A stretch of 64,000 bases of DNA from Candidatus Woesebacteria bacterium (GTDB taxonomy: Bacteria; Patescibacteriota; Microgenomatia; UBA1400; PJMF01), in NCBI GenBank assembly GCA_050123235.1, contig JASFHL010000001.1, positions 84,651 through 148,650 on the forward strand, written 5' to 3'. Numbering within the stretch: the first letter of the stretch is position 1; the number at the start of each line of letters is the position of its first letter. The notes below the pieces were generated by a model. It did not search any database and was not told the origin of the DNA. It worked only from the letters and a program-made list of their open reading frames with translations. Below are positions 19,294 to 64,000 of this stretch, piece after piece. Position numbers and translations under genes: made by a program.

Positions 19294-19590
19294 ATGGCAA
19301 AATATAAACAATATTACACAAAAATGATCGAAGAGAACAGAAATCTCTTTTTTGAGTTTAAAAACATTCATGATAAATTCAAAAGTGAGCGTTCAAAGCA
19401 TCAAGCAGAGTTTAATCGAATCGGACAAAAAGTGAGAGATGTGATTCGCGATTGGGATCGCCGTCTTTGCAGTGCCATGGGTAAAGGGCAATATAGTCAA
19501 TATTCTTACCAGCTGTCAGAAAAGTTTTGGAATCATGCCCGAAAAGAGTTTGAGTTTATAGATCTTGTGGGAGTTAAGGTAAAAAAGTAA
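19294..19590 (+). CDS. hypothetical protein (98 aa)
   Basis: ORF with RBS GGAGAAG upstream; no motif. Confidence 0.3.
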   Translation: MAKYKQYYTKMIEENRNLFFEFKNIHDKFKSERSKHQAEFNRIGQKVRDVIRDWDRRLCSAMGKGQYSQYSYQLSEKFWNHARKEFEFIDLVGVKVKK

Positions 19591-19595
19591 TTATA

Positions 19596-21065
19596 TTAAT
19601 CCTTATGCAACTCCAAAAAACCTACACTGTTAGCTGGCATATTGACATGGGTTTTTAGCACTGCTGCACTAGTAGCTAGTTTTTGAACATTATTAACTCC
19701 GCCAATCATCTGGATAGAAAGTGTGTAACTACCTGGGTTGATATTATAAAAAGTAATTGGCACAAATTCAGCGTGCTGACCTTTTTTGTCAAAGTTGGCA
19801 ATTACTAATTGAGTATTATTATTTTTATCTTTAGCAGCTAAAGCTTTAACCCAAGACCCATTGCCAGTAATTTGCAATCTTTGATCAGCAATGCGATCTA
19901 GCATCTTTAGAGCTTGGTAGCGTGGTTTAGCTTTAGAAGCAAAGTCTCGATGAGTAAACATTCCCCAACGCCCCCAATATTCCTGACCTTCTGCGCCTTT
20001 CCCATCTTGAATTTCAAACACAAATGCTTTTTGAATACTGTCAAGCATGACAATTAGTCCAGCTACAGTATGAGCTGCTGCATAATTATTATCATAGCCA
20101 GGATCAATTTCACTATTATGACCCCATTCAGTAATATGAAATTCTAAAGATGGTTCTAATTTAGGATATTTCAAGATCCAATTTTTCACATTACCCATAT
20201 CTTTGACATACTGATCAAGATCATTGCTATATCTATGCCAAGAAAAGAAATCATAACGTAAGTTGTTTTTAACAGCATGTTTCGCCATGGCGTCAAACCA
20301 GTTTTTGTATAAAGCAGTGATGGCTGGGCCACCAATTTTAAATGGTTTTACACCTTGAGCGTTATTAGCTCCTCTCACAGCATAGGTATAAAGGTCAAGG
20401 TAGTTTTTATCACCATAATATTTCCAACTGCCAAATAGATCCGGTTCATTCCAGACTTCATAATAGACATTGTCAATTTGTTTAGTTCCAGAAACATGTT
20501 CAATAGTTTTCTGAATTGTTAATTGCCAATCAGCCCAATTAACTGGTTTAGAAACAATATCTCCGCTGGCAATAGCAGGAGGCATGTAGCTAAGAGCAAT
20601 ATAGGGTTTGGCTCCAGTAGCCAAAATGTCATCCAAGATAAGGTTAAACTTTGAAAAATCAAATTGAAGATTACCCGGGCTACCCTTGACAATATCATAG
20701 AAGTCATAAATATGATCGATGCGAATATATTGGGGATTAAGGCTTTTAACTTGGCTCGATATTGGTTCTATTCGCCAGTCATGATCTTCACCACCTTGAG
20801 CTAGATAACGCCAAGGTCTAGGTATGGAGCCAATCACTCCCTGGGTATCAACTAGTAAATTAGCCGGCACACCAAGTGCTTTACCAAGGAACTCTCTTAC
20901 TATTTTAAGTTGAGAAACTCCAATTAAAATTACAACTGTGAATATTAAAAGAAAAAATCCAGCAAAAATAGTTTTTATTTTTTGTTTGGAGTGTCTTTTT
21001 TTTCTTAGCATGATGAATGATTTATTTAAATTATAGCAAGAATTAGATACTTTTTTTGTTCTCAA
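19596..21065 (-). CDS. membrane-anchored glycoside hydrolase, clan GH-A (GH5/GH39-like)
   Basis: N-terminal signal anchor; YEVWNEPD (NEP acid/base motif) and ITEWGHN (nucleophile Glu) typical of (beta/alpha)8 GH-A enzymes; C-terminal beta-sandwich. Confidence 0.6.
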   Translation of the reverse strand: MRTKKVSNSCYNLNKSFIMLRKKRHSKQKIKTIFAGFFLLIFTVVILIGVSQLKIVREFLGKALGVPANLLVDTQGVIGSIPRPWRYLAQGGEDHDWRIEPISSQVKSLNPQYIRIDHIYDFYDIVKGSPGNLQFDFSKFNLILDDILATGAKPYIALSYMPPAIASGDIVSKPVNWADWQLTIQKTIEHVSGTKQIDNVYYEVWNEPDLFGSWKYYGDKNYLDLYTYAVRGANNAQGVKPFKIGGPAITALYKNWFDAMAKHAVKNNLRYDFFSWHRYSNDLDQYVKDMGNVKNWILKYPKLEPSLEFHITEWGHNSEIDPGYDNNYAAAHTVAGLIVMLDSIQKAFVFEIQDGKGAEGQEYWGRWGMFTHRDFASKAKPRYQALKMLDRIADQRLQITGNGSWVKALAAKDKNNNTQLVIANFDKKGQHAEFVPITFYNINPGSYTLSIQMIGGVNNVQKLATSAAVLKTHVNMPANSVGFLELHKD

Positions 21066-21165
21066 ATTTTTAATATTTGTTCTCCTGCCATTTTGAGGAA
21101 TGTTAAGGTTGATAATTGATTTATTTTTTTCTTTTATCTAAGATAGCGATGGTATTGGAATACCT

Positions 21166-21735
21166 ATGAAAAAAAACAACGGCCACAAAATCATCCTTGA
21201 TCTAGATAAAGAGAAATCCAAGGTCAGTAAGCTTAAAAAGATTGGCAAGAAAATTGTCTTAACTCAAGGTTCTTTTGACATGGTGCATATAGGTCATGCT
21301 CGCTACTTTGAGGCGGCTAAAAAACAGGGAGATGTTCTGATCGTGGGGGTTGATGATGATGAAAAAATCAGGCATCGTAAAGGTCCAGATAGGCCAGTAG
21401 TACCTCAAGAAGAAAGACTAGAGATGTTAACTTATCTCAGTTCAGTTGACGTGATAGTTTTGAAAAAATTTAATTATCCTAGATGGCATTTAATTAGAAT
21501 TATTAAGCCAGATGTGTTGGTAGCGACAAGAGAGACATATAGTGATGAAGAGCTAGAGCAACTAAAAGAATATTGTGGCAGAGTGTTGGTATTGGCGCCT
21601 ATGGCCACTACTTCGACTAGCGCTAAAATCAGACGAGTACAGATTGGAACAGCCAGAAGAATTGAGTCAACTTTAAAAACCAAGCTAATTGGAGCGATGG
21701 AAGATGTGCTTAAAGAGCTTAAAGATAATGTTTAA
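21166..21735 (+). CDS. cytidylyltransferase-like nucleotidyltransferase (RfaE domain II/TagD-like)
   Basis: GSFDMVHIGHARY (HxGH) motif, about 130-aa Rossmann-like core. Confidence 0.6.
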   Translation: MKKNNGHKIILDLDKEKSKVSKLKKIGKKIVLTQGSFDMVHIGHARYFEAAKKQGDVLIVGVDDDEKIRHRKGPDRPVVPQEERLEMLTYLSSVDVIVLKKFNYPRWHLIRIIKPDVLVATRETYSDEELEQLKEYCGRVLVLAPMATTSTSAKIRRVQIGTARRIESTLKTKLIGAMEDVLKELKDNV

Positions 21736-21742
21736 TAGTTTT

Positions 21743-21988
21743 TATTGATGCATATTTTTTTAGAGTTATTGAGATGCTTAGAACAATTAATATCTATAAA
21801 TCTGGAGCGTTGAAGCGAGGCCTGGTTAGGCTTGAGTTAGCAATCAATATATTACCGAGCTTCACCTAGTGAGCCTTGTATCTTATAAAAAAAATATAAT
21901 AGCGAGCGTGTCCAAGATTTATAGATATTAATGTTCTAAACACTAGATTTTTTTAAAACAGACTATTAAGATATCTTATGCATCAATA
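21743..21988. repeat. about 246-bp imperfect-palindromic intergenic element, copy A (core GGAGCGTTGAAGCGAGGCCTGG ... TACCGAGCTTCACCTAGTGAGCC)
   Basis: Terminal inverted repeats of about 65 bp (ttattgatgcat...gcttagaacaattaatatctataaatctgga at left, its reverse complement at right); core shared with copies at 29351-29554 and 47045-47175. Confidence 0.6.
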
Positions 21989-21995
21989 ATCAACT

Positions 21996-22925
21996 ATGAA
22001 ACAAATCATAATCGCCTATATTCCAGTTCTACATGAAGGATATCGTCAATTTTTTTCAAAATATCCTCAGGTAAAAAAAGTTTTTCTTTTGGGTCGAGAT
22101 TTTATAAAAGACTTTCCTCAATTATACAAAGATATTCGAGCCCTAGAGCCAAATTTAATCAAAAAAGCTCTAGCAAGTTGGCAGATTTTTGATGAGATTG
22201 AAATAATTGATAAAAAACTTTTAAAAGCCGGGAAAGTTTTTTCGCCCACAAAAGATCGCAGTCAAGCAAGAATCGAGTTGATCATGCCCAACGAGGAGAT
22301 CATGCAGACTTTGGCTAAAAAATATTTCAAAAACTATAAAGTGACTTTTGATGCAATCTTTTTGCGTTGGGATAAGCATCAAGTAGCCAAAAAACGAGCA
22401 GTAAAAGCAGATGCTTTGATTTCTGAGAGGAACTTTGATCGAAAAATGATGAATCTGGCTTTTGAAGAAGCAAACAAAAGTTCTGATTGCTGGCGTCATG
22501 TGGGAGCAGTGATTATCAAGGATGGCAAAGTATTGCTCAGTGCCCACAATCGTCATCTACCCTCAGCTCAACAGCCCTACATTGACGGTGATCCTCGTGA
22601 TAATTTTCATAAAGGAGTTAAGCTGGAATTATCAACTTCTTTACATGCAGAAGCTGGCTTGATTGCTAAAGCTGCCAAGAGAGGCCTTAAATTAGTGGGA
22701 GCGGAGATTTATGTCAGTACTTTTCCTTGTCCGGTCTGTGCTAAACAGATTGCTGCTGCTGGTTTTAAAAAACTTTATTATGCTGAAGGCTATGGTGTTC
22801 TAGATGGCGAGCGAGTTTTGAAAAGCCAAGGAGTTGAAATAGTGCAGGTCAGAGCAGACGATGATTTTGAAAGCACAAAAAGAGGTGAGAGCAAATATAG
22901 TACGGTGAAGAAGTATCGGAAGTAA
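21996..22925 (+). CDS. dCMP/cytidine deaminase domain protein with about 150-aa N-terminal domain of unknown function
   Basis: C-terminal HAEAGLIAKA ... PCPVCAKQI (H-A-E ... PCxxC zinc-dependent deaminase signature); N-terminal half has no recognisable motif. Confidence 0.75.
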   Translation: MKQIIIAYIPVLHEGYRQFFSKYPQVKKVFLLGRDFIKDFPQLYKDIRALEPNLIKKALASWQIFDEIEIIDKKLLKAGKVFSPTKDRSQARIELIMPNEEIMQTLAKKYFKNYKVTFDAIFLRWDKHQVAKKRAVKADALISERNFDRKMMNLAFEEANKSSDCWRHVGAVIIKDGKVLLSAHNRHLPSAQQPYIDGDPRDNFHKGVKLELSTSLHAEAGLIAKAAKRGLKLVGAEIYVSTFPCPVCAKQIAAAGFKKLYYAEGYGVLDGERVLKSQGVEIVQVRADDDFESTKRGESKYSTVKKYRK

Positions 22926-28975: not shown

Positions 28976-29314
28976 ATGAGAATTTTAGTACAAGGTAAAG
29001 ACTTGGCAGTTACTAAAGCTTTGCGTAATTTTACTAAGGATCAAGTAAATCGTAAACTTTCAAAAATTTCTCAGAGAATTAATCAAGTTAGAGTTTATTT
29101 CGAGCATATTTCCAGAAAGAATGGTGATCCCAAAAGGGCAGTTGTTAGATATAAGGTAGAATTGCCAGGTAAAGATATAGTGGTAAAAAGTAGAGCTAAG
29201 AATCTTTATCAAGCAATTGTAACTGCTACTGATACTATGGTTAGGAAGGTAAGGAAAAATAAGGAAAAAAGAATGGCGAAAACTAGATTGCCTGTTGAGA
29301 TGGAGGGGCAGTAA
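28976..29314 (+). CDS. hpf: ribosome hibernation promoting factor / RaiA family
   Basis: MRILVQGKDLAVTKALRNFTKDQ parallels HPF MNIQITGRNIEITPAIRDYVEEK; about 112 aa; RBS AAAGGA before ATG at 28976 (ORF track TTG start at 28952). Confidence 0.7.
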   Translation: MRILVQGKDLAVTKALRNFTKDQVNRKLSKISQRINQVRVYFEHISRKNGDPKRAVVRYKVELPGKDIVVKSRAKNLYQAIVTATDTMVRKVRKNKEKRMAKTRLPVEMEGQ

Positions 29315-29350
29315 ACTAGAACAACAATTTTATAATTTACTAATAAGTTA

Positions 29351-29554
29351 ATACTAGAGTCGTTCACTACAGTATTTTTTTATTTTTTAAAATACGAGGC
29401 TCACTCGGTGAAGCTCGGTAGTAAATCTACTGCCAAATCGATCCTAGCCAGACCTCGCTTCAACGCTCCAATATTTATCTGTAGTAAAATTCTGGACACT
29501 TGCTCCAAGTTTCATATAAAAAAAGAGTTGATTATTGTTAACTGACTCTAGTAT
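29351..29554. repeat. palindromic intergenic element copy B (inverted relative to copy A)
   Basis: Reverse complement contains GGAGCGTTGAAGCGAGGTCTGG ... TACCGAGCTTCACCGAGTGAGCC (near-identical to copy A cores); ends ATACTAGAGTCGTTCAC / GTTAACTGACTCTAGTAT form imperfect TIR. Confidence 0.55.
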
Positions 29555-29563
29555 GCTAATAGC

Positions 29564-30001
29564 ATGACTGATGACCAACAAAATACCGCTACAGATCCTG
29601 GGGCTGCTAAGAGAAGTCCTTTAGATGCATTAGAAGATTTATTAAAAGATGCACAAAAAAACAAAGGTGCTGTTGGAGCAGCTCCTAGTTTAGCTGCATT
29701 AGGTGGAGCGACCCCCGATGCTGTTGGATTTGAAAAAGGTAGTGAAGAGGAGGAAACTGACAGCCGCTCAAGTGAAGAACAACTGGCAGAAGTTGCTAAA
29801 TTGGAAGAACAGAAAAAACAGGAAGATCAAGTTAGGATAGCAGAGGGGCTTAAAGATCTTCAATACGAAGCCACTCAATCTCCACAGGCTCAAGCTAGAA
29901 TTTCCCAGGATCAAGAAAAAAAAGTTAAGGATGAGCAAAAGGCTAGTGAAAGAGAAGAATATAAAATTAGACAAATCGAGCATACAAAAATTCAGGAATA
30001 A
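29564..30001 (+). CDS. hypothetical low-complexity E/K/Q-rich protein
   Basis: ORF; predicted disordered, coiled-coil-like. Confidence 0.3.
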   Translation: MTDDQQNTATDPGAAKRSPLDALEDLLKDAQKNKGAVGAAPSLAALGGATPDAVGFEKGSEEEETDSRSSEEQLAEVAKLEEQKKQEDQVRIAEGLKDLQYEATQSPQAQARISQDQEKKVKDEQKASEREEYKIRQIEHTKIQE

Positions 30002-47044: not shown

Positions 47045-47175
47045 GATAATTTTACCACTACTACGGATAAACATTGGAGCGTTGAAATGAGGTTTGGAAA
47101 GATCAGAGGTAGATACTTTACTCACTTACTATTGATATAAAATAAAAACCTGGAGGCGAAGTCTTAAAAATTTAG
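47045..47175. repeat. degenerate copy C of the palindromic intergenic element family
   Basis: CTACGGATAAACATTGGAGCGTTGAAATGAGGTTTGG closely matches CTACAGATAAATATTGGAGCGTTGAAGCGAGGTCTGG of copy B (rc); second partial core CTGGAGGCGAAG. Confidence 0.4.
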
Positions 47176-47183
47176 AGTAATCT

Positions 47184-47537
47184 TTATTTTTTATCCTCTG
47201 TACTCTTTGTTTTATTAGCAGCCTTGACTGCTTGTTTTTGTTCTCTGAGAATTTCTTGATAAGATTTTGAATCGTCTTCTTGTTTTTTAGCTTTCTTTTT
47301 CTTTTTAGCTTGAGCATCTGATTGTTTTTTTGTTTGAGCTATTTTCATTTTTTTCATAAATTTATCAACTCGACCTTGTCTATCAACAAATTTCATTTCT
47401 CCAGTAAAGAACGGATGACAGTTACTACAAATATCAACATGTATTGATTTGAGACTCGAACCAGTAGTAAACTGATTACCACAGGTACAAGTAACAACAC
47501 AATCGTCGTGCCAACTAGGATGTAAGTTTTGTTTCAT
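47184..47537 (-). CDS. rpmE: 50S ribosomal protein L31 with lysine-rich C-terminal extension
   Basis: MKQNLHPSWHDDCVVTCTCGNQF...CSNCHPFFTG (L31 C4 zinc ribbon + HPFYTG motif); about 45-aa K/A/Q-rich tail. Confidence 0.8.
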   Translation of the reverse strand: MKQNLHPSWHDDCVVTCTCGNQFTTGSSLKSIHVDICSNCHPFFTGEMKFVDRQGRVDKFMKKMKIAQTKKQSDAQAKKKKKAKKQEDDSKSYQEILREQKQAVKAANKTKSTEDKK

Positions 47538-49879: not shown

Positions 49880-51136
49880 CTATTTATCTTTCATCATCTC
49901 AATCGCTTCTTCCACAGATAGTTGTTTTTGTTTACCACTAGTCATATTTTTTAAGCTCAGCAAATCTTTCTCAGCTTCTTCTTCACCAATGATTACTACC
50001 CAAGGGATATTTTTTTTGTCGGCGAGTTTAAATTGTTTGCTAAGTTTATCGAGAGCAGGGTAGACTTCAGTGTTAATGCCGGCTTGGCGAAGCTGATTAG
50101 CAAGTTTCAAAGAAGCAGCTTGGCTTTTTTCATCAAAAATAGTGATAAGAGCTTGGACGGCATTTGTATCAGCAGGAATCAAATCTAGTTTTTCAGCAGC
50201 CTCGACCATGCGGTCAAATCCAAAGGCAATTCCAGTAGCTGGCATATCAACACCACCCAGCTCGTTGATTAAATTGTCATAGCGGCCACCACCTCCACAC
50301 GAACCGACTGGATAATCAGGCAAGATTACTTCAAAAATCATGCCAGTGTAGTAATCTAAGCCGCGAGCCAAACTAGGAGTAAATTCCAGATCTTCTTTTT
50401 TAACCCCAAGATTAACGGCACTTTCTATAATTTGTCTTAAATTGTCTGACATTTGAGCTTTATCCACAGTTGTTAAAACTTGCTTGGCGCTATTTTCTGT
50501 TAAACCTTTTTTAACTAACTCTTCAATTACTTGTTGAGGTTTTAATTTATCTAATTTATCAATTGATTGGATAATAGAAAAGACATTGATTCTGTCTATA
50601 GCAAACGGCTTTAAAGTAGCCATCAAAGTTTGTCGATCATTAATTTTAAGTTTGATGTTTTTAAAACCTACATTTTTAAAAGCTTCATAAGTACAAGCTA
50701 GGATTTCCGCATCTGCCAATGGGGAACTACTGCCAAAAATGTCAATGTCACATTGGGTAAATTCACGATATCTACCTTTTTGAGGTTTGTCAGCACGGAA
50801 CACATTTTGGATTTCATAGCGTCTAAAATACTTAGGTAATTCATTTTGATATTGGGCTAAAACGCGAGCAGTCGGCACTGTTTGATCATATCTTAGACCA
50901 ATTTTTCGCCCCCCTCTGTCTTCGAAAGTATAAACCAGTTTGTCTGCTTCTTCACCGTATTTGCCCAATAATAAAGAAGCATACTCTAAAGTAGGCGTTT
51001 CCAAAGGCTCAAAGCCAAAGTTTTCAAAAGTTTCGATTACTTTTTTGATCACATAATCGCGTTTGCGTTTTTCTGCAGGCAAAAAATCACGAAAACCTTT
51101 TAATGTTTGAACGGATTGTTTAGTTTGTTTTGTCAT
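49880..51136 (-). CDS. hisS: histidyl-tRNA synthetase
   Basis: Class II motifs: LKGFRDFLP (motif 1 region), GLRYDQTVP, FRYE.., GGGRYDNL (motif 3), C-terminal anticodon-binding domain. Confidence 0.9.
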   Translation of the reverse strand: MTKQTKQSVQTLKGFRDFLPAEKRKRDYVIKKVIETFENFGFEPLETPTLEYASLLLGKYGEEADKLVYTFEDRGGRKIGLRYDQTVPTARVLAQYQNELPKYFRRYEIQNVFRADKPQKGRYREFTQCDIDIFGSSSPLADAEILACTYEAFKNVGFKNIKLKINDRQTLMATLKPFAIDRINVFSIIQSIDKLDKLKPQQVIEELVKKGLTENSAKQVLTTVDKAQMSDNLRQIIESAVNLGVKKEDLEFTPSLARGLDYYTGMIFEVILPDYPVGSCGGGGRYDNLINELGGVDMPATGIAFGFDRMVEAAEKLDLIPADTNAVQALITIFDEKSQAASLKLANQLRQAGINTEVYPALDKLSKQFKLADKKNIPWVVIIGEEEAEKDLLSLKNMTSGKQKQLSVEEAIEMMKDK

Positions 51137-51209: not shown

Positions 51210-51276
51210 GGGGGCGTGTTGGTCAGTAATGGATCCGTCAAATCTAATTACAGGGGTTCGAATCCCCTCGCCTCCA
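51210..51276 (+). ncRNA. tRNA-like element lacking a D arm (possible tRNA pseudogene or tRNA-mimic ncRNA); anticodon-position triplet GUC
   Basis: 7-bp acceptor stem GGGGGCG/CGCCUCC, canonical T arm AGGGG-UUCGAAU-CCCCU, 9-bp extended anticodon-like stem with 7-nt loop CCGUCAA, followed by ACA and T7; antisense to flanking his genes. Confidence 0.4.
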
Positions 51277-51370
51277 CATTTTTTTGCTGTTGATTTTGCT
51301 TTAATTATTTGTTAAATTATTTTTAATTGACGGATCTATTACTGCAAGATTTAAAACTCCTGTAGTTAGA

Positions 51371-51432: not shown

Positions 51433-51711
51433 TTACTCCTTTTGTCTTTTTTTTAATTCTGTTAATACTTCCTCAAATTCAATGTTTTTTGCTGTGAGTA
51501 GCACTAAGCTGTGAAACCATAAATCCGCTGTTTCTTCAATTAATCTTTGCTTTGATTGATTCTTACTAGCAATTACAACTTCTGTAGCTTCTTCACCAAC
51601 TTTTTGAGCAATTGCATCAATTCCTCTAGCAAAAAGGGAAGAGACATAAGAACCTTTAGGCATAGTCTTTTGTCTTTGTTTAATAATGGTAGTTAATTTT
51701 TTTAGAATCAT
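51433..51711 (-). CDS. hisE: phosphoribosyl-ATP pyrophosphatase
   Basis: about 92 aa MazG-like; EEATEVVIA...ETADLWFHSLVLL typical of HisE. Confidence 0.8.
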   Translation of the reverse strand: MILKKLTTIIKQRQKTMPKGSYVSSLFARGIDAIAQKVGEEATEVVIASKNQSKQRLIEETADLWFHSLVLLTAKNIEFEEVLTELKKRQKE

Positions 51712-52730
51712 AATATTTGTTTAAAAAAGCAACTTTTATTATTGGTATGACAGATATTTTTACCAATGATTTTGCTTTGTATTAATAATGTATCATTATC
51801 ACAATCCAAAACTATCTTATTAACTTTCAATTTATTACCAGATGTTTCACCTTTCATCCATAGTTTTTTTTTTGATCGACTCCAAAACCAAGCATATCCA
51901 GTTTTGAGTGTCTTTTTAAGAGCTCGTTTATTCATATAAGCTAGCATTAATATTTCCTTGCTTGATTCTTCTTGAACAATGGCAGGAACCAAGCCTCCTT
52001 GTTTTTCAAAATCAACACTATCTTGATCATTAAGATAAAAAAGCCCGTCATAGAGAGCTTTGCCAACAATTACCGCCTCAGCACCAAGATCTATTAACTG
52101 CTTGATATCTTCTTTAGAAGCTATACCACCTGCCATGATGACAGGCATATTGATACTATTAATTAGTTTTTTAATGATTTTTAAATTTGGCCCTGTCTCA
52201 GTGCCATCTCTTAAAGTATCAGTGTAAATTAATCTTTTGACAGTTAGTTTTTCTAATTTTTGAGCTGTTTCTATGAGATTCAATTGTGTGTTTTTTAACC
52301 AGCCTTTTGACATCAACTTACTGTTTTTGGCATCTAGAGAAACAATGATTTGATCAGGGAAAACAGCTAATATTTTTTTTAATAACTCAATATTTTCTAA
52401 AGCAATGCTACCTAAAATGATTCGATTAACACCGAGTTGAATTAGTTTTTTAACGGTCTTGAAATCACGAATACCACCACCGACTTGAGTGGGAATAGAT
52501 ACAGTTTTGATGATATTTTTGATGATTTTTAAGTTTTGAACTTTTCCGACTTTGGCCCCGTCAAGATCCACGATGTGTAAGCTTTTCGCACCTTGATCTT
52601 GCCACTGTTTTGCGACTAATACTGGATCGCTGGCATAGACAGTTTTTTTGCTGAAATCACCTTGTTTTAATCTCACGCAGTTACCATTTTGGATATCAAT
52701 TGCTGGTATGATTTTAGTTAAATTTATCAT
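51708..52730 (-). CDS. hisA: bifunctional ProFAR isomerase (HisA) / phosphoribosyl-AMP cyclohydrolase (HisI) fusion
   Basis: N-terminal HisA barrel (IIPAIDIQNGNCVRLKQGD, HIVDLDGA, GGGIR); C-terminal HisI (GLVPAIVQE, LAYMN, FWSRSKKKLWMKGETSGN, DCDNDTLL, CHT..SCF). Confidence 0.85.
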   Translation of the reverse strand: MINLTKIIPAIDIQNGNCVRLKQGDFSKKTVYASDPVLVAKQWQDQGAKSLHIVDLDGAKVGKVQNLKIIKNIIKTVSIPTQVGGGIRDFKTVKKLIQLGVNRIILGSIALENIELLKKILAVFPDQIIVSLDAKNSKLMSKGWLKNTQLNLIETAQKLEKLTVKRLIYTDTLRDGTETGPNLKIIKKLINSINMPVIMAGGIASKEDIKQLIDLGAEAVIVGKALYDGLFYLNDQDSVDFEKQGGLVPAIVQEESSKEILMLAYMNKRALKKTLKTGYAWFWSRSKKKLWMKGETSGNKLKVNKIVLDCDNDTLLIQSKIIGKNICHTNNKSCFFKQIL

Positions 52731-63763: not shown

Positions 63764-64000
63764 TTATTCTTCTTTCTCTGCCGATTTACTGGCTTCTACT
63801 TCGCTCTCTTCCAGTAGCAGTTGACTAGTAACAATAATTGTTCGTTCGATACTTGATTTTTTTCCATCTTCATCAATGGCATAAACAGTGATGACATTGC
63901 TACCTGCTTCTAATTCAAGTTCAGTAGAGAAGTTACCACTTTCATCTGAAGTAACTATTGTTTCCTGATTGCCTACAAAGATGACCACAAAGTTATTTGC
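63764..64000 (-). CDS. hypothetical protein, C-terminal part (gene continues beyond window end); Ig-like beta domain
   Basis: ORF reaches window edge; ITVYAIDEDGK pattern resembles bacterial Ig-like domains. Confidence 0.3.
   Translation of the reverse strand, partial: ANNFVVIFVGNQETIVTSDESGNFSTELELEAGSNVITVYAIDEDGKKSSIERTIIVTSQLLLEESEVEASKSAEKEE

Follow-up and report, generated by a model that had tools for sequence, protein, structure and literature searches.

ERIC sequences (enterobacterial repetitive intergenic consensus, also known as intergenic repeat units, IRU) are imperfect palindromes of ~127 bp. Correia elements of Neisseria are ~100-155 bp long and resemble miniature inverted-repeat transposable elements (MITEs), with conserved 26-bp terminal repeats, a TA duplication, an IHF site and hundreds of copies. 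Repetitive extragenic palindromes (REPs) are shorter, at 20-40 nt (~70-110 nt for REPINs), carry a conserved 5' GT[AG]G and occur in tens to hundreds of copies; the RAYT protein associated with them is a Y1 transposase. Members of the candidate phyla radiation (CPR/Patescibacteria) have small, densely packed genomes, for which there are hardly any descriptions of dispersed structured repeats; a full-text search of the literature found no description of such repeats in CPR bacteria. The present analysis concerns a palindromic repeat, copy B, at positions 29351-29554 of a 64,000-nt, AT-rich (35% G+C) stretch of a Candidatus Woesebacteria genome, referred to as the window. We consider, with a probability of roughly 0.55, that copy B belongs to a clade-specific, non-autonomous family of palindromic intergenic repeats of the ERIC/Correia/MITE kind, the hairpin of which is under constraint.

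Copy B lies inside a 249-nt spacer that leads from hpf (28976-29314, PF02482) to the gene for a 145-aa protein. A Pfam search with this protein and with the next one, of 210 aa, returned no matches, and cysS follows; the initial annotation, which had placed the repeat between hpf and two disordered-protein genes, was thus right on its location. The sequences that it quoted are present in the reverse complement of 29395-29486, which reads ...TACTACAGATAAATATTGGAGCGTTGAAGCGAGGTCTGG-(27 nt)-TACCGAGCTTCACCGAGTGAGCCTCG. The core of B (29373-29486) is 80-83% identical to a second repeat on the opposite strand, copy A (21796-21901), and a repeat search paired the two as 92-nt inverted arms (21803-21894 and 29379-29470) with 83% complementarity, so that the proposed inversion of B relative to A is genuine. 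Local alignment stretched the similarity between A 21796-21901 and B 29373-29478 to 106/107 nt, with an E-value of 1.3e-10 in blastn-short, which clearly exceeds the limit of fewer than 20 nt and non-significance at which the repeat would have been discarded. Diagnostic patterns of 26 nt and 37 nt found no chance match in 100 shuffles. The claim of over 90% identity to copy A is accurate for the two quoted sub-blocks (22/23 and 24/26, counted by eye) and too high for the core as a whole. Together with a 40-nt block that recurs in two further copies, C and D, and with a hairpin fold, these results establish copy B as a dispersed palindromic repeat.

Exactly three copies (A, B and C) were found in the window, both with nhmmer --max and with a covariance model run with its filters off. 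Copy C (47057-47097) is 87% identical to B over 39 nt. Copy D occupies positions 1-40 of L009, a Logan contig of the same organism that places it ~3.4 kb past window position 64000, where it is truncated by the contig end; it stands 66 nt upstream of a gene for a 79-aa protein, and a JGI contig would put it in a spacer of 421 nt behind a PsbP-like gene. The family therefore numbers at least four copies in ~68 kb here, and at least two in 34 kb of the closest known relative. Copy density in the present genome is ~1 per 17-20 kb, unit size is ~130-260 bp, and all copies in both genomes that carry the family are intergenic. Two Logan contigs (SRR11698124), L005 and L009, both break inside the repeat core within 4 nt of each other (TAGCCAGACCTCG... 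and CAGACCTCG...), as is expected of a repeat that collapses in short-read assembly; L005 covers the B locus and L009 carries copy D.

Read along the mRNA strand of B, C and D and of the relative's two copies (L013 and L015), the unit runs in the order Box1, T-rich tract, irregular hairpin, Box2, (A)ATATTTAT and a -10-like hexamer. The apical stem-loop of the hairpin is variable, while its basal stem is made of Box1 and the end of Box2. Box2 reads CCTCGCTTCAACGCTCC, or CTTCAACGCTCC in another notation, and comes with TATTTAT and the -10-like hexamer; its block is the segment common to A, B, C and D, with a weaker form in the two intergenic regions of the relative. Box1, Box2 and an extra box in B are direct repeats of ...ACGCTC.... 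In B, the 5' arm of the central hairpin is CGAGGCTCACTCGGTGAAGCTCGG, the apical stem-loop is GGTAGTAAATCTACTGCC (29417-29434) and the 3' arm ends in ...CCAGACCTCG; the Box2 block ends in -10-like hexamers (TAGTAA / TAAAAT) toward the downstream gene, and the second Box-like segment forms a small hairpin, TTGGAGCAAGTGTCCA, on the minus strand. The imperfect terminal inverted repeat of ~17 bp reported for B is real, consisting of a perfect 11-bp pair, ATACTAGAGTC (29351-29361) and GACTCTAGTAT (29544-29554), which, when extended to 18 columns, has 16 matches, one mismatch and one gap. In copy A, Box2 lies at 21804-21825 and Box1 at 21902-21913, both on the minus strand, and a perfect 18-bp inverted repeat (21786-21803 / 21915-21932) is accompanied by further outer repeats. 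Copy C comprises a Box1-like segment (47149-47165), the T-rich tract, a degenerate middle and Box2 (47076-47097), and is directly followed by TGGTAAAAT (47049-47057, minus strand), an extended -10-like sequence 15 nt ahead of the prfA ATG.

Comparison with related genomes showed that the sites of A, B and C are empty in several lineages. The spacer between hpf and the next gene is 42 nt long in both L006 and L007, which lack the element and whose hpf genes are ~60% identical to that of the window; L006 also keeps the order tmk-recR-...-hpf-...-cysS. The expectation that relatives would lack the insertion at the hpf site was thus borne out. The rpmE-prfA spacer measures 57 nt in L014 and 54 nt in L019 (prfA 67-68% identical) against 152 nt here, and only 7 nt separate the CTP_transf-like gene from that for dCMP deaminase in L017 and L018 (dCMP deaminase 54% identical), against 260 nt here. 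In L006, the dCMP deaminase gene stands 24 nt behind a different upstream gene, again with no element. Given these short spacers, the element represents extra DNA at all three sites relative to the more distant lineages. In L014 and L019, TGTTACAAT or TGCTACAAT directly follows the rpmE stop codon, and a small 5' hairpin comes after it. The insertion junctions of B could not be placed by aligning its flanks to the 42-nt spacers of the relatives, which are too diverged.

The closest relative in the databases is the 747-kb contig Ga0309788_100001, with prfA 68% and dCMP deaminase 57% identical. Its 217-nt spacer between the CTP_transf-like and dCMP deaminase genes (L015, 5784-6000), the same junction as that of copy A, proved to be homologous to the element. 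The minus strand of A aligned with the plus strand of L015 over ~185 columns, covering the whole A spacer, with a z-score of 9.7 and 0 of 300 shuffles scoring as high, against z -0.9 for the forward strand of A. Copy A has thus flipped in place: its spacer is inverted relative to L015 5784-6000 while the flanking genes keep their order and strand, as is plausible for a segment bracketed by the perfect 18-bp inverted repeat and further outer repeats. The plus strand of B aligned with it over ~200 nt (z 6.35), its minus strand giving z 0.45, and the left terminal repeat of B lines up with the shared Box1 (GACACGCTCGC in A and L015, GAGTCGTTCAC in B). Since both A and B align at full length with L015, the family is better described as one long unit with a better-conserved centre than as a core with unrelated ends. 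The earlier view that the ends differ while the core is the same has to be amended accordingly: the outer parts have diverged, yet are homologous, and the left terminal repeat of B is included in the alignment. An early model of a recent MITE insertion with unrelated outer repeats was dropped on account of this full-length homology with the relative's intergenic region.

Upstream of prfA, the relative carries a short form of the 3' block (L013), 27/30 identical to the block in L015 (z 4.9). The regular expression [CT]TT[CT]AACG-N2-9-[AG]TT[TC]AT matched only A, B, C, D and the two spacers of the relative within all DNA searched together. A hidden Markov model (HMM) built from window copies A-D only had exactly these two spacers as its best matches in the relative's 34 kb, both weak (E ~4). 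Copies A and B are 80% identical to each other and each is 72% identical to L015. Copies within the genome are thus closer than positional counterparts, the pattern of families that multiply, that are homogenised by gene conversion or that co-evolve with a genome-encoded partner.

The hairpin was assessed by folding and by covariation. Against dinucleotide shuffles, the 204-nt B element folded with z -3.0 on the minus and -3.9 on the plus strand; in copy A the hairpin spans the whole 260-nt spacer (z ~-7.6), and the L015 spacer is a long hairpin itself (z -3.84). Copy C keeps Box1, the T-tract and Box2 but no longer folds (z +0.6 / +0.8). In a three-sequence alignment of A, B and L015, 33 pairs were counted, with 89.6% of cells paired and 10/33 pairs changed on both sides, and 0 of 500 shuffles reached any main measure. 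When the partner was slid by 1-3 columns as a control, 38-51% of cells remained paired and 0-3 pairs were double-changed. Compensatory changes across genomes indicate that the palindrome is maintained and not merely inherited. The count is compatible with an RNA stem and with a DNA palindrome corrected at the DNA level alike.

Judged by sequence, the element resembles ERIC and Correia repeats in form, not by descent, the similarity being one of kind only because there was no Rfam match at E-values up to 10 and no blastn match among phages and plasmids. It is an imperfect palindrome of 100-260 bp that folds better than shuffled sequence, and it is intergenic and present in several copies in two genomes. 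Like ERIC, it is a long non-coding imperfect palindrome of 100-200 bp between co-directional genes and is likely transcribed; both occur in few to moderate numbers of copies, at some orthologous sites of related species and not at others, with no known transposase, and both have size variants produced by internal indels (compare the short L013 form). Unlike ERIC, with which it shares no sequence similarity, it belongs to a different host phylum (CPR/Patescibacteria), whole spacers including site-specific outer arms are palindromic, and one copy has flipped in place. With Correia elements it shares hairpin-forming intergenic repeats in both orientations, and possible outward promoter-like boxes at the ends; co-transcribed Correia stem-loops affect mRNA processing. 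In contrast to them, it has terminal repeats that change from copy to copy, an ambiguous TA and an apparently low copy number. Like REPs and REPINs, the copies are extragenic palindromes of genome-specific sequence, more homogeneous within than between genomes, non-randomly oriented with respect to transcription, and with a hairpin that would be recognised as single-stranded nucleic acid. However, the unit is larger than a REP or REPIN, at 130-260 nt, with direct-repeat boxes and a T-rich bulge, it occurs only about once per 17-20 kb, and no RAYT or other Y1 transposase gene was seen in the 64-kb window. Like a MITE, finally, the element is multi-copy, short, non-coding and absent at orthologous sites in L006, L007, L014, L017, L018 and L019, but its terminal repeats are not conserved among copies.

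On this reading, the family may have been gained by, or have invaded, the common ancestor of the window lineage and its closest relative, or may have spread between them. It would have multiplied or been homogenised non-autonomously, either through a transposase encoded elsewhere and acting in trans or through hairpin- or recombination-driven copying with gene conversion, and selection, whether by the cell or by the machinery that propagates or maintains the element, would act on the hairpin. The element would have inserted into tight co-directional gene junctions and widened them; its position inside such formerly tight gene pairs suggests that it is probably transcribed as intercistronic RNA. 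The orientation bias (5/6) may reflect selection on transcription, with the tolerated orientation placing a weaker hairpin without a U-tail in the mRNA and the Box2/-10-like end before the downstream gene.

Several points weigh against this interpretation. Terminal repeats differ from copy to copy and a target-site duplication could not be clearly defined, which leaves classic transposition unproven, and no transposase or other mobilising gene was seen in the 64 kb of genome read. The covariation rests on three informative sequences, from which the structure was itself derived. The match between copy C and the relative's prfA-upstream sequence is weak when taken alone (z 2.4; HMM E 3.8). Furthermore, the presence of the element at the same two junctions, beside neighbours that are 57-68% identical and with 72% nucleotide identity, could equally reflect long-standing purifying selection on a functional cis-element instead of selfish persistence.

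The last point leads to the most serious alternative, which we nevertheless regard as unlikely, namely that the copies are a conserved cis-regulatory module: a promoter or operator, or a 5'-untranslated or intercistronic RNA, upstream of prfA, the dCMP deaminase gene and the genes for the 145-aa and 79-aa proteins. Box1 and Box2 would be recognised by a lineage-specific protein or sigma factor with which the copies co-evolve, and such co-evolution with a trans factor would fit the homogeneity within the genome. In 5/6 copies (B, C, D, L013 and L015, with A the exception), the CTTCAACG..TATTTAT box points to the downstream co-directional gene, so that Box2, TATTTAT and TAnnAn face this gene in order. 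The initial annotation had taken differing orientations as an argument against a promoter or terminator role, but only A deviates, while B, C, D and both copies of the relative agree; with orientation biased in this way, a transcription-related constraint may be at work. The motif also lies upstream of the same two genes, prfA and dCMP deaminase, in the closest relative, whose copies end in a perfect TATAAT, and copy C is followed by TGGTAAAAT close to the prfA start. The direct repetition of ...ACGCTC... in Box1, Box2 and the extra box of B would suit a recognised site.

The promoter evidence is less favourable to a cis-regulatory module. A consensus scan of 29200-29700 found no sigma-70 promoter in the gene-facing orientation, and hence none in B. 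By eye, TTCAAC-N17-TAGTAA, or TAAAAT at N20, can be picked out in B, with equivalents in all copies, but the hexamers are weak and the spacing is variable: there is no acceptable -35/-10 geometry, TTCAAC agrees at 3/6 positions and stands 14 nt (relative) or 16-17 nt (this genome) away from the -10-like hexamer, and the window hexamers end in A or G. Sigma-54 and extracytoplasmic function (ECF)-type promoters were also considered for Box1 and Box2, and rejected by eye because the spacing does not fit. The same consensus scan of 29200-29700 returned no terminator-like site; on the mRNA strand of B a T-run stands ahead of the hairpin, and on the other strand only UAUUUU follows the hairpin, with no gene upstream. 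Moreover, copy A is kept although inverted, the hairpin is gone from copy C, no functional link between the downstream genes is obvious, and in more distant relatives the same genes are expressed from element-free spacers of 7-57 nt. Orientation could not be tied to replication either: the GGAGCG strand is +, -, + and + for A to D, which follows no strict rule and does not match the GC skew. The skew itself is +0.08 to +0.20 over 1-48 kb whatever the gene strand, and ~0 over 48-64 kb, where genes are on the minus strand; in the absence of a sign change, no replication origin or terminus is evident in the window.

A further and somewhat less probable reading is that the unit, instead of being selfish DNA, is a structured element under selection, whether a cis-regulatory RNA or operator or an antisense small RNA, that occupies the same junctions upstream of prfA and dCMP deaminase in lineages with neighbouring proteins of only 57-68% identity. 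A co-evolving trans partner would keep its copies alike within each genome, and in-place inversion between its own inverted repeats, of the kind observed for copy A, could switch it.

It is also conceivable, if improbable, that the copies encode a family of small structured RNAs read from the GGAGCGUUGAAGCGAGG strand, which in B, C and D runs antisense to the genes on either side. The product would take the form of an irregular hairpin, ~90-130 nt long and with GUAUUUU at its end, acting in trans or antisense on neighbouring 3' or 5' untranslated regions. In each copy examined, the strand reading GGAGCGUUGAAGCGAGG gives the more stable fold of the two, by 4-10 kcal/mol (A -35.1/-25.6, B -35.2/-26.3, C -18.9/-13.0 and L015 -26.8/-22.6 kcal/mol), and on the pair set shared by A, B and L015 it holds 7, 7 and 4 G-U pairs, compared with one in each sequence on the other strand. 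Such an asymmetry is no more than suggestive, as the pair set was optimised on the GGAGCGUUGAAGCGAGG strand, A and B are not independent samples, and the wobbles of the apical stem favour the other strand. Directly behind the hairpin stands UAUUUU in B and UAUCUUAU in A, GGAGCG is preceded at 2-8 nt by a conserved ATAAAT-like box, and the hairpin covariation would suit an RNA. On the other hand, a palindrome maintained at the DNA level yields the same covariation, no convincing promoter is apparent (the -10-like boxes lack the final T), the relative's copy has no U-tail, copy C is structurally dead yet retains Box2, and Rfam gave no match.

A classic MITE would be an insertion sequence reduced by deletion and mobilised by cut-and-paste at terminal inverted repeats of 11-17 bp, with duplication of a TA in the style of IS630/Tc1-mariner. 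This is the least credible of the explanations: the element is small, AT-rich and non-coding with terminal inverted repeats, TA flanks CTAGAGTC...GACTCTAG of B on both sides, the site is empty in relatives and assemblies break inside the repeat, but the TA, being itself palindromic, is not separable from an extension of the inverted repeat, the ends differ between A (TAGTTTTTATTGATGCATA... plus the 18-bp ATTAATATCTATAAATCT) and B (ATACTAGAGTC...), their outer segments do not recur anywhere else in the window, the 64 kb encode no transposase, and searches of genome, metagenome, viral, phage and plasmid collections did not recover the pattern. Only the internal Box1/Box2 pair is loosely shared, and the best-conserved part of the element is internal, the opposite of what recognition by a transposase predicts.

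Searches for known families gave no support to any described element. A scan with Rfam 15 at gathering thresholds returned only three matches to tRNA models in the window, and E-value scans of B and A (up to 10) and of the whole window, the raiA motif, 6S, SRP and riboswitches included, gave nothing credible over the copies. The exact pattern GGAGCGTTGAARYGAGGNNTGG had four matches in genome contigs, all in GC-rich unrelated taxa and equal to chance expectation, and none in metagenomes or viral sequences; a two-part pattern gave three chance matches in metagenomes, and Box2 patterns in viral contigs gave four (in GC-rich phage coding DNA) and none. No blastn match to the element was found in phages and plasmids. 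Among the 28 window proteins scanned against Pfam there is no transposase; the gene content of the window is of a housekeeping kind (mreBC, PBP2, topA, tmk, recR, cysS, radC, ychF, ssb, prfA, hisS and the his operon). Two other candidates were tried and rejected. For a small protein or toxin, A(-) and B(+) each have an open frame with a GTG start, but L015 reads the shared CTTCAAC box in another frame, and no frame is conserved. For a template/variable pair of a diversity-generating retroelement, the changes between A and B are not specific to adenines, and neither copy lies within a gene.

The family widens tight gene junctions of 7-57 nt to 150-260 nt. It could serve as a clade marker and gives a practical warning for the assembly and annotation of metagenome-assembled genomes (MAGs). 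It is also a candidate mobile-element system or regulatory RNA in organisms with almost no known regulation. If it is only a passive repeat, the biology is ordinary and the host unusual; the gain would be modest if transcript data were to show a defined RNA or promoter. Coordinates are collected in Table 1.

Table 1. Positions of the parts of copy B and of the related copies A and C in the window.
Feature	Position	Strand	Description or basis
Left terminal inverted repeat of B (ATACTAGAGTCGTTCAC)	29351..29367	+	Aligns with the Box1 region (ATAGACACGCTCGC) of copy A and of the relative's element
T-rich tract of B (TATTTTTTTATTTTTTAAAATA)	29373..29394	+	A-rich asymmetric bulge on the other strand; same position in A, C and L015
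Central imperfect hairpin of B core	29395..29457	+	Single-sequence and consensus folds, pair counts
Box2 block of B (CCAGACCTCGCTTCAACGCTCC + AATATTTATCTGTAGTAAAAT)	29448..29490	+	Repeat search, alignments, regular expression, HMM
Second Box-like segment of B (GGACACTTGCTCCAAG)	29494..29509	+	Direct-repeat relative of Box1/Box2; weak HMM match at 29502-29517 (E 4.3)
Right terminal inverted repeat of B (GTTAACTGACTCTAGTAT)	29537..29554	+	Sequence, folds
Copy A	21736..21996	-	Whole 260-nt spacer from CTP_transf-like gene to dCMP deaminase gene, forming one long hairpin
Copy C	47049..47165	-	Between rpmE and prfA, in a 152-nt spacer

Some further features of the window and its relatives were recorded. 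Around copy A, gene order differs from that in L006. In the window, a GH39-like gene (19596-21065, minus strand), the CTP_transf-like gene and copy A separate the gene at 19333-19584 from that for dCMP deaminase. In L006, the homologue of 19333-19584 stands directly before the dCMP deaminase gene, and comparison of L006 1-3151 with window 19596-21735 puts the CTP_transf-like gene on the far side of the dCMP deaminase gene and on the opposite strand, with thyA and a gene for a 155-aa protein between them. Near copy C, ribosomal protein L31 is 117-121 aa long in the clade and has a long lysine-rich C-terminal tail (window 47184-47537, minus strand; L013 9547-9909; L014 2767-3132).

The 570-nt spacer between hisS (49880-51136, minus strand) and a hisF-hisI fusion (51708-52730, minus strand) contains a 70-nt look-alike of the tRNA-like domain of transfer-messenger RNA (tmRNA) at 51210-51279 on the plus strand. 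Its acceptor stem is GGGGGCG/CGCCUCC with G3-U70 and its T-arm (GGGGUUCGAAUCCCC) is perfect; it contains a single middle hairpin and is followed by seven U. It scored 40.6 bits with the Rfam tmRNA model (gathering threshold 47; E 9e-13), 326 model positions being replaced by 31 nt, and 36.2 bits with the Rfam tRNA model; ARAGORN made no call. These features would fit a small or degenerate form of ssrA as well as a tRNA-like small RNA. Its middle hairpin is also one arm of a 27-nt inverted repeat (51224-51250 / 51318-51344, 81%), the second arm of which lies 67 nt downstream; this repeat is unrelated in sequence to the A/B/C family.

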